From Escherichia coli (GTDB lineage: Bacteria > Pseudomonadota > Gammaproteobacteria > Enterobacterales > Enterobacteriaceae), in the NCBI RefSeq assembly GCF_009931435.1, contig NZ_CP043414.1: a stretch of DNA of 64,000 nt; one strand, written 5' to 3'. The notes under the pieces are model-generated. The model saw only the letters and a list, made by a program, of their open reading frames with translations, was not told where the DNA came from and ran no database searches. Below are positions 8,820 through 10,399 of this stretch, piece by piece; position 1 is the stretch's first letter, and every line of letters begins with the position of its first letter. The translations under genes were made by a program, and so were the position numbers.

Positions 8820-9227
8820 TCACCCTGCCCGATGATGACAGCAGCCAGAGAGATTTTCGATAATCGGGCAATCGGCGCTGTCATCACCGGGGCAGGCATT
8901 CGCCAGCGCCAGTAGCTGGTCGCGCATGGATTGCAGCTCCTCAATGTGCCGTTCGATCTCCGCCACCTTCTCCAGCGTGCGCCGTTTTACATCGGCGCTA
9001 TGCCGCTGCGGGTCGTTAAACAGATTTACCAGTTCGCCGCTCTCTTCCAGGTTAAAGCCCACCTGGCGCGCCTGGCGCAGTAAGGTCAGTTCGTTGAGAT
9101 GCTGCTGCGTGTAGGTTCGATAACCATTTTCGCTGCGCATCGGCGGCGTCACCAGCCCCTTTTCTTCATAGAAGCGAATGGCTTTGCTGGTCAGGCCGGT
9201 AATTTTTGCTACATCGCTAATGTTCAT
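8820..9227 (-). CDS. cueR: Cu(I)-responsive MerR-family transcriptional activator CueR
   Basis: 135-aa [29 protein letters not shown]..., with the MerR HTH and the C-terminal metal-binding [10 protein letters not shown] motif. Confidence 0.95.
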
Positions 9228-10399
9228 CGTTCGCGCAACGCCTCCTGTGCTTTGTTAAAGGGTTTCAACAGATAATCCAGCACGCTTTTTTTGCCGGTGC
9301 GGATATCGACCGTCGCCACCATGCCGGGAAATATCGGAAACTGCTGTTTATGTTTATTTTCCAGATGGTTGCTGAAAGTGCGAATGTACACCCGATAGTA
9401 ATAAACATCGCGTCGCACTTCATCCTGCACGGTGTCTGGTGATATCACCGCCACTTCCCCCGGCAGGCCGCCGTAGATGGAGTAGTCGTAAGCGGTTATT
9501 TTCACCAGCGATTTTTGCCCCGGATGGATAAATGCCACATCGCGGGGGGAGATTTTTGCCTCGATCAGCAGTTGCTCATCCAGCGGCACGATGGTCATCA
9601 GTTTACCACCGGGGGCGATGACGCCGCCAACCGTGGTGACGTCAATGTCCTGAACAATGCCTCGCACCGGCGCGGTAAAGTTGAGCCGGGTGAGAGAATC
9701 TTCCCGCCCGCGGATCACCGAACGCTGGGTTTCCACTTCCGCATTGGCTTTCGCTAACTCTTCGCGCGCCTGAACGTAATATTGCGTGCGCACGTCGCTA
9801 AGTTTGTTTTCCAGTTCATTGGCCTGGCGTTGCAGGCGCAGCACTTCAACGCTGCTCGCCGCCCCCTGTTTCACCAGCGGCTGGGTCATCGCCAGTTCGC
9901 GGTTGACCAGGCTAATCCCCTGCGTCAGCCCGGTGGTGGCTTTGTTCAACCCGTCGCGGCGAGTGTTATATAACGCCGTTTCCGACTCGATAAGTTCGGG
10001 GAATTTATTCAGTTCGTCAGGAAAGACCAGCGGTTTATTGCTCACTTCTGCCCGCAGCCGCGCCGAGGTTGCCAGCGCCGCGTACAGCCGCGACATCGCT
10101 TCCTGGACGTCGGATTCCGTTTTGGTGCGGTTAAGCTGCGCCAGCGGCTGCCCCTGTTCGACAATATCGCCAACCTTCACGTCGAGATGATACAAAATCC
10201 CGCCTTCCAGCGACTGCACCACCTGTTCGCGTCCAGAAGGTTCTACCGTGCCGCTGCCGGTGGTGACTTCATCAAGCTGGAAGTACCACGCCCAGCCGAG
10301 AAAACAGAGCAGCATCACAGCGGTAACGCGCACCGCCAGCGCCGAACGTGGCAGGCGGGGTTCAGTCAGGCCACGGTTGTATTGCAGTTGTCCGTTCAT
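9224..10399 (-). CDS. Type I secretion periplasmic adaptor (HlyD/membrane-fusion family)
   Basis: 391-aa ORF with an N-terminal membrane anchor, long coiled-coil segments and a C-terminal beta domain typical of HlyD/LapC-type adaptors. Overlaps the upstream ABC gene by 4 nt and cueR by 4 nt. Confidence 0.8.

Follow-up and report, generated by a model that had tools for sequence, protein, structure and literature searches.

Why does the gene of a copper sensor begin inside the last gene of a secretion cluster? In Escherichia coli assembly GCF_009931435.1 (contig NZ_CP043414.1), the start codon of cueR, which encodes the Cu(I)-responsive regulator CueR, overlaps the stop codon of the gene for an HlyD-family type I secretion adaptor (hlyD28). 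We analysed a stretch of 64,000 nucleotides (nt) containing this junction, referred to below as the window. Comparison with other genomes indicates that the overlap, an ATGA tetranucleotide, forms the right-hand end of a ~28-kb block that is specific to Escherichia. The block consists of glsA-ybaT and the secretion cluster known as O-island 28 (OI-28), and it lies between the copA promoter with its CueR operator and the start of cueR. The same comparison indicates that this Escherichia-specific insertion replaced the leader of cueR, and that cueR now has its Shine-Dalgarno sequence, AGGAGG, within the adaptor gene. Taken as a whole, that is, the history of the block junction together with the replaced leader and read-through from upstream, we give this explanation a probability of about 0.8.

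The minus strand at 9215-9235 reads GCGTTGCGCGAACGATGAACATTAGC / CGCGAACGATGAACATTAGC. The two genes lie on one strand with the upstream stop overlapping the downstream start, and the list of open reading frames (ORFs) gives an overlap of 4 nt, in which the start and stop codons have 2 nt in common, as an earlier note on this DNA had read it. The product of cueR carries the MerR helix-turn-helix, the dimerisation helix and a C-terminal Cys-x7-Cys motif, which we take, from the CueR structure, to hold the metal-loop cysteines. Its start codon, as assigned from the sequence, is not in doubt, because the Pfam match begins with the first residue and identity to annotated E. coli CueR is 99-100%. 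On the adaptor side, orthologues from Enterobacter, Pseudocitrobacter, Enterobacillus, Erwinia, Citrobacter, Kluyvera and Lelliottia are, among the matches listed, 69-85% identical and nearly all 391 residues long, and the 3' ends read from other genera (4 of 4) finish in EALRER before the stop codon. A misannotated adaptor stop is ruled out by the length of these orthologues and by this shared end.

As a pattern, the overlap is ordinary and not statistically remarkable. ATGA is the commonest overlap type among co-directional bacterial genes, the junction between the ABC and adaptor genes 1.2 kb upstream in the same cluster is ATGA too, and a TGA in the adjoining frame comes with any gene that begins ATG-A.

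The position of the junction was then compared with cueR loci of other species. The scan for CueR, with one genome per species, returned 80 loci, 75 of them outside Escherichia; a copA-cueR divergon was taken to consist of a divergent copA no more than ~145 bp away and a CueR box no further than 80 nt ahead of the cueR start. In 44 of the 75 non-Escherichia species, copA lies next to cueR in divergent orientation at a distance of 94-141 bp, and a CueR-box palindrome stands at most 80 nt from the cueR start in 42. The typical operator, ACCTTCC-n7-GGAAGGT, ends 13-15 nt before the GTG or ATG start (9-17 nt across all loci). None of the Escherichia loci of the scan has an adjacent divergent copA or a CueR box upstream of cueR, and in the window the copA start is at 37624 and the cueR start at 9227. 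Similarity to the outgroups ends, on the copA side, about 4 nt past the operator (~37553) and starts again, on the cueR side, at (A/G)TGAAYATYAGYGATGT, which is the start codon. These two limits place the Escherichia-specific DNA at ~9228 to 37552, with the ATGA itself as its right end.

Compared with the copA-cueR divergon of Salmonella, Citrobacter, Enterobacter and Klebsiella (PMC1526738), the window has the same operator at the copA promoter and a cueR of 83-92% protein identity, whereas its cueR leader, Shine-Dalgarno sequence and start context are adaptor-gene sequence, its operator is 28 kb off, and its start codon is ATG where many outgroups with the divergon use GTG. A divergent copA-cueR pair with 94-141 bp between the genes is the arrangement of most other Enterobacteriaceae and, on this comparison, the ancestral one; in Escherichia the ancestral leader is gone, and a full-length adaptor gene, normally terminal in its cluster, abuts cueR exactly. 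The adaptor genes of other genera stop with TAG or TAA, after AGA, CGT or CGA. In Escherichia, the last sense codon, CGA, gives the A and the stop codon, TGA, gives the TG of the cueR ATG, and formation of the junction through TGA/ATGA microhomology is plausible on these letters.

The breakpoints of K-12-type genomes were obtained by megablast against complete E. coli genomes (n=5426). In island-less genomes, similarity to the window passes the cueR start and ends at 9319-9322, ~95 nt into the adaptor gene. The remnant of K-12 has a 1-nt deletion in an A7G run, retains the ATGA overlap with cueR (alignment A1), matches the conserved adaptor C-terminus of other genera and is annotated in RefSeq/PGAP as a pseudogene ('frameshifted; missing N-terminus'). 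The K-12-type deletion extends from ~9322 to ~35107, and its left breakpoint falls within the terminator hairpin of ybaT: K-12 reads GCGCAGTACTTCCTGTA followed across the junction by TTATTGTGG..., against GCGCAGTACTTTCTGTACTGCGCCTTTGTCTTT in the window, and the terminator scan of K-12 detected none between ybaT and cueR, the corresponding K-12 stretch being L001 2968-3000. Because its remnant is a gene fragment, K-12 is, on this comparison, the deleted state and not the ancestral one. In the remnant, the island-less allele (K-12 and L006, the prefix L numbering the loci compared) has four changes relative to the island-bearing one that lie close together: C>T, a lost G, G>T and T>A (L001 3017-3055 against window 9263-9302).

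The adaptor gene together with cueR is present in 959 of the 5426 complete genomes and the tolC end of the cluster in 958. The 80 nt centred on the ATGA are at least 95% identical in 5424 of them, and by this measure the junction of adaptor tail and cueR is universal in E. coli, island present or not. The suggestion in the earlier note that reference strains lost the upstream genes is thus borne out by the frameshifted ~95-nt remnant of K-12, which still overlaps cueR by ATGA. Its placing of the island boundary exactly at the cueR start holds against other genera, whose copA-cueR divergon becomes similar again from the start codon on, but not against K-12: the comparison with the K-12 upstream region that it proposed locates the breakpoint ~95 nt upstream, inside the adaptor gene.

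In the same way, other lineages of the genus were compared. The window is 96.6-97.4% identical in nucleotides to K-12 and to strain 2013C-4282. The junction is intact in Escherichia whittamii, whose CueR protein is identical to that of the window but whose nucleotide identity of ~91% shows that the window does not belong to this species, and in Escherichia sp. E1V33. E. albertii has lost the cluster by a deletion other than that of K-12, leaving an adaptor tail of which only ~55 nt are still recognisable; the 21 nt before its cueR ATG (ACAGGAGGCGTTGCGCGAACG, including AGGAGG) are identical and the sequence further upstream is decayed, while its ybaT-distal hairpin is intact by manual reading, though the terminator scan gave no report of it. 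In L007, a divergent genome labelled E. coli, the island is fragmented and the adaptor tail frameshifted. The intact junction in E. whittamii and E1V33, together with the decay in E. albertii and L007, indicates that the cluster already adjoined cueR at an early stage of the genus, with several losses or degradations since then. K-12-type E. coli later deleted the cluster, keeping the ~95-nt tail and cutting the ybaT hairpin, and E. albertii lost it by its separate deletion.

Between ybaT and cueR, the window holds, in order, genes for a TolC-family outer-membrane protein, an RTX/Ig-repeat adhesin, an ABC exporter and the HlyD adaptor (Table 1). This tolC-adhesin-ABC-HlyD-cueR synteny is common to the window, O157:H7 PA20 and strain 2013C-4282. 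Judged by gene order and by location between ybaT and cueR, both of which agree, the cluster is OI-28 of enterohaemorrhagic E. coli O157:H7; the ABC and adaptor proteins of PA20 are 99-100% identical to those of the window, and PA20 has the same ATGA junction with cueR. The OI-28 genes were named tolC28, rtxA28, rtxB28, hlyB28 and hlyD28 (z0635 = hlyD28) in a paper of December 2025, which reports RstA- and Ca2+-dependent expression from the upstream region of tolC28 and a role in adherence (PMC12758282). There, all five OI-28 genes are lowered 3.25-4.85-fold by the delta-rstA mutation, and binding of RstA upstream of tolC28 is reported; cueR has 0 occurrences in that paper.

Table 1. Features of the window at the cueR junction and along the adjoining blocks (window coordinates).
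Feature	Position	Strand	Remarks
120-aa ORF	6407-6769		islet 3' of cueR
YadA-family autotransporter	7136-8152		islet 3' of cueR
Lipoprotein	8206-8628		islet 3' of cueR
63-aa ORF	8625-8816		islet 3' of cueR
cueR, Cu(I)-responsive MerR-family regulator, 135 aa	8820..9227	-	Pfam MerR_1, MerR-DNA-bind, MerR from residue 1
ATGA tetranucleotide	9224..9227	-	cueR ATG 9227-9225 overlaps adaptor TGA 9226-9224
HlyD-family type I secretion adaptor (hlyD28 of O-island 28), 391 aa, full length	9224..10399	-	Pfam HlyD_3, HlyD_D23
Adaptor tail kept in K-12-type genomes, ~95 nt	9228..9322	-	frameshifted remnant; right deletion breakpoint
Shine-Dalgarno-like AGGAGG for cueR	9241..9246	-	13 nt before ATG, in adaptor codons Gln-Glu-Ala
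Type I secretion ABC permease/ATPase (hlyB28), 720 aa	10396..12558	-	stop overlaps adaptor start by ATGA
Giant adhesin, 6923 aa	12562..33333	-	BapA_N, many Big_13 repeats, FG-GAP, C-terminal RTX repeats
TolC-family outer-membrane gene (tolC28)	33442..34797	-	Pfam OEP; in-frame TAA at 33795-33793
ybaT intrinsic terminator	35099..35125	-	11-bp stem then TTGTCTTT; described as strong
ybaT	35135-36427	-	
glsA	36430-37362	-	
CueR operator of copA promoter	37557..37577	-	ACCTTCCAGCAAGGGGAAGGT; stays with copA, 28 kb from cueR
copA	37624-40128	+	

Two genes of the window cluster differ from their published counterparts. The adhesin is one intact ORF here, named 'BapA-related adhesin SiiEA' in the PGAP/RefSeq annotation, against two genes in EDL933 and an annotated pseudogene in PA20 and 2013C-4282. 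In tolC28, unlike the intact form, codon 335 is an in-frame TAA, where the intact 451-residue orthologue of E. coli WL297 has AAA (Lys); the codon context is GGGCAATAAAAAATC against GGGCAAAAAAAAATC in WL297. Read from the sequence, this could be either a nonsense pseudogene or a base error in an A-run. The cluster resembles the systems of BapA (Salmonella pathogenicity island SPI-9), SiiE (SPI-4) and LapA-type adhesins in the BapA_N prefix, the tandem Ig-like repeats and C-terminal RTX repeats of its adhesin, and in its dedicated TolC/ABC/HlyD trio.

For translation of cueR, the stretch with AGGAGG is the most conserved part of the adaptor tail across the genus. We propose that cueR would be translated de novo from this AGGAGG in the last codons of the adaptor gene; de novo initiation is required in K-12, because nothing upstream is translated there. 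Where the adaptor is translated, ribosomes stopping at the TGA may add some reinitiation at the cueR ATG. The arrangement is like that of translationally coupled ATGA overlaps in operons, with both genes on the same strand, a 4-nt overlap and a Shine-Dalgarno sequence within the upstream gene. It differs from them in that the adaptor and cueR are unlike in function and in evolutionary age, and in that K-12-type strains use the same cueR ATG without a translated upstream gene; coupling is therefore dispensable. The RNA fold around the junction is no more stable than its shuffles (z = +0.8), with no sign of a structure sequestering the ribosome-binding site.

No intergenic DNA separates the adaptor gene from cueR, and transcription therefore begins inside or upstream of the adaptor gene; the claim of the earlier note that cueR is without an intergenic promoter region of its own is literally correct, the genes overlapping. 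No terminator-like site was found by the terminator scan on the coding strand between adaptor and cueR. A consensus promoter scan of the cueR strand gave no sigma-70-like site at threshold upstream of cueR in the window or K-12, and none in the tail of O157. With a weight matrix, for which the best score per 500 shuffled nt averages 7.1 (standard deviation 1.7), no candidate rose above the shuffled background and none stood at a conserved position; both scans may miss weak or non-canonical promoters in the 95-nt tail. In E. albertii, the only promoter-like match (5759-5786) is inside ybaT, >210 nt upstream of cueR.

In the literature, no start-site data for cueR were found, and the supplements of PMC2760140, PMC10301672, PMC7815308 and PMC6131387 name neither cueR nor ybaT. 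On a cueR promoter or a ybaT-cueR operon, only an operon prediction of 2006 was found (PMC1526738), which is consistent with ybaT-cueR read-through in K-12. A sigma-54 site in ybaT (PMC4591121) is 679 bp upstream of cueR in K-12; as a cueR promoter it is not relevant here, since the island lies between in the window.

In the window, cueR mRNA would come from transcripts starting inside or upstream of the secretion genes, and we expect low-level read-through with weak internal starts and no strong promoter dedicated to the gene. The transcriptional coupling to the secretion system that the earlier note raised may therefore occur. Where the ybaT terminator is destroyed, in K-12-type strains, transcripts reading through from glsA-ybaT probably contribute. 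Under acid stress, cueR mRNA of MG1655 goes up along with ybaST (PMC9628877), and the loss of the terminator in K-12 could be the cause of this co-induction.

Two other histories of the junction have to be weighed against an early insertion followed by loss. By convention, O-islands are regarded as acquired DNA that K-12 lacks (PMC12758282), and on that view the island would have been inserted recently at cueR in this lineage, with K-12 as the ancestral empty site. We give this virtually no credence. K-12 carries a frameshifted fragment coding for the conserved adaptor C-terminus, which contradicts a recent insertion, as a complete gene must precede its fragment; the terminator hairpin, whole in island-bearing genomes, is cut short at the left breakpoint, and the remnants of E. 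albertii and L007 have decayed differently. That cueR was ancestrally the last gene of the secretion operon, as the earlier note also considered, would agree with the resemblance of the overlap to an intra-operon junction, and is nevertheless very improbable. The orthologous clusters of Enterobacter, Pseudocitrobacter and Enterobacillus end with the adaptor, and unrelated genes come after it; across the four non-Escherichia genera covered, the adaptor has downstream of it an EAL-domain gene, a cho-like gene or unrelated ORFs, and no adaptor orthologue is followed by cueR. The pairing of cueR with copA in 44 of 75 other species, a divergent arrangement widespread in enterobacteria, likewise contradicts an ancestral place in the operon, and we reject it on these two grounds.

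For transcription, the alternative to read-through and weak internal starts is a promoter within the last ~95 nt of the adaptor gene that mainly drives cueR and for which the tail was kept in every island-less E. coli. It is a serious possibility, although we lean against it. The tail and the ATGA junction are found in 5424 of 5426 genomes, K-12 makes functional CueR from a gene that follows ybaT by only 124 nt, and two independent deletions, in the K-12 type and in E. albertii, stop short of cueR. The four clustered changes of the K-12-type tail create TTCGCA-17-TTGAAT; they may be compensatory and raise the likeness to sigma-70 sites, but this best score of the K-12 tail is only 5.6, below the shuffled mean, and no tail site reached the scan threshold in the window, K-12 or O157. 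In addition, strict conservation in E. albertii is limited to the 21 nt before the ATG, that is, the Shine-Dalgarno sequence and spacer, and the one breakpoint common to K-12-type genomes makes retention of the tail a single event. A different alternative takes cueR as the fifth cistron of the secretion operon, dependent on the tolC28 promoter and co-regulated with the adhesin by RstA, Ca2+ and RpoS. The gene junctions are tight (ATGA, ATGA, 3 nt), no terminator was found between adaptor and cueR, and the five OI-28 genes fall together in the delta-rstA mutant, with RstA bound upstream of tolC28. We consider it unlikely: island-less strains express cueR without the tolC28 promoter, this promoter is ~25.6 kb from cueR, and the nonsense codon of tolC28 in the window is expected to lower downstream transcription, as a nonsense codon does by Rho-dependent polarity. 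For EDL933, the available part of the published table gives RpoS dependence of 55-fold for Z0608 and 20-fold for Z0609 and does not include the distal island genes (PMC2907692). The distance, the nonsense codon and these partial RpoS data make read-through from the far tolC28 promoter alone an unlikely source of cueR mRNA.

Some points weigh against our preferred account, the replacement of the cueR leader by the inserted block followed by read-through. Its transcriptional part is inferred from sequence, and a promoter that is weak or non-canonical may have escaped the scans of the 95-nt tail. The 13-nt spacing between AGGAGG and ATG exceeds the optimum. The block may have arrived either in one step or in several, and the exact abutment may come either from the insertion itself or from later loss of a spacer. 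Finally, the copper sensitivity of delta-ybaST in MG1655 is complemented by ybaS alone (PMC9628877), so this phenotype is no indication that cueR depends on upstream transcription.

More doubtfully, and as a tentative suggestion, the level of cueR could, because the insertion stripped the ancestral leader, follow whichever operon sits upstream: the RstA-, Ca2+- and RpoS-controlled adhesin operon in OI-28-positive strains, and the acid-induced (acid/Gad) glsA-ybaT in the K-12 type, because the deletion removed half of the ybaT terminator. If this were true, the acid-copper cross-talk reported for MG1655 would have a structural cause, the wiring of copper sensing would depend on the strain, and deletions of hlyD28 or of the whole island that take AGGAGG could disturb CueR.

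Part of this is already known: hundreds of public genomes have the overlap in their annotation, the island has been described in print, and the K-12 remnant carries a pseudogene annotation. We did not find it stated in the literature that Escherichia cueR lost its divergent control region to an insertion, that all E. coli use the adaptor tail as cueR leader, or that the K-12 deletion cut the ybaT terminator. The process itself, in which an inserted island displaces a regulatory region and then decays, is known; the locus adds a new example of it and no new kind of biology. CueR is a textbook metal sensor studied nearly entirely in K-12, and by the present comparison its upstream region in every Escherichia genome is a relic of a secretion gene, not the ancestral divergent control region. 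Findings on cueR expression in Escherichia may thus not hold for Salmonella or Citrobacter, or the reverse, and the same caution applies when island-bearing E. coli are compared with island-less ones. OI-28, in turn, is to be regarded as ancestral to the genus and repeatedly lost, and not as a pathogen-specific acquisition. In deletions of hlyD28 or the island, the last ~30 nt should stay, since the ribosome-binding site of cueR is there.

On the other side of cueR, a second variable islet (window 6400-8819) adjoins the gene at its stop codon. Similarity to K-12 stops exactly at 8820, the cueR stop, and resumes at ~6299 with ybbJ. The site between cueR and ybbJ holds an insertion of ~2.9 kb in many Citrobacter and Kosakonia loci. 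E. coli 2013C-4282 has an extra hypothetical gene of 1224 nt directly after the cueR stop (L003 4682-5905), which is absent from the window and from O157:H7 and is another sign of a variable 3' boundary of cueR.

Upstream of cueR, 31 of the 75 non-Escherichia species have other DNA between copA and cueR, with varying breakpoints (L011, L014, L015, L017, L018, L022, L026, L032, L033, L040, L044, L053, L057, L065 and others). Half of a CueR operator is kept beside cueR in L014, L022 and L040, and other interrupted loci have a TATAAT-containing leader; from these sequences the copA-cueR spacer looks like a recurrent insertion site. Within the genus, Escherichia sp. MOD1-EC7003 (L006 4088-4584) has a K-12-type junction with copA and ybaT only ~495 bp apart; tblastn did not find glsA in this locus, where it appears to be deleted. 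Additionally, a record titled Chryseobacterium sp. 18061 (L051) contains an enterobacterial cueR-ybbJ locus with a CueR 86% identical to that of the window, and this record is probably mislabelled or contaminated.

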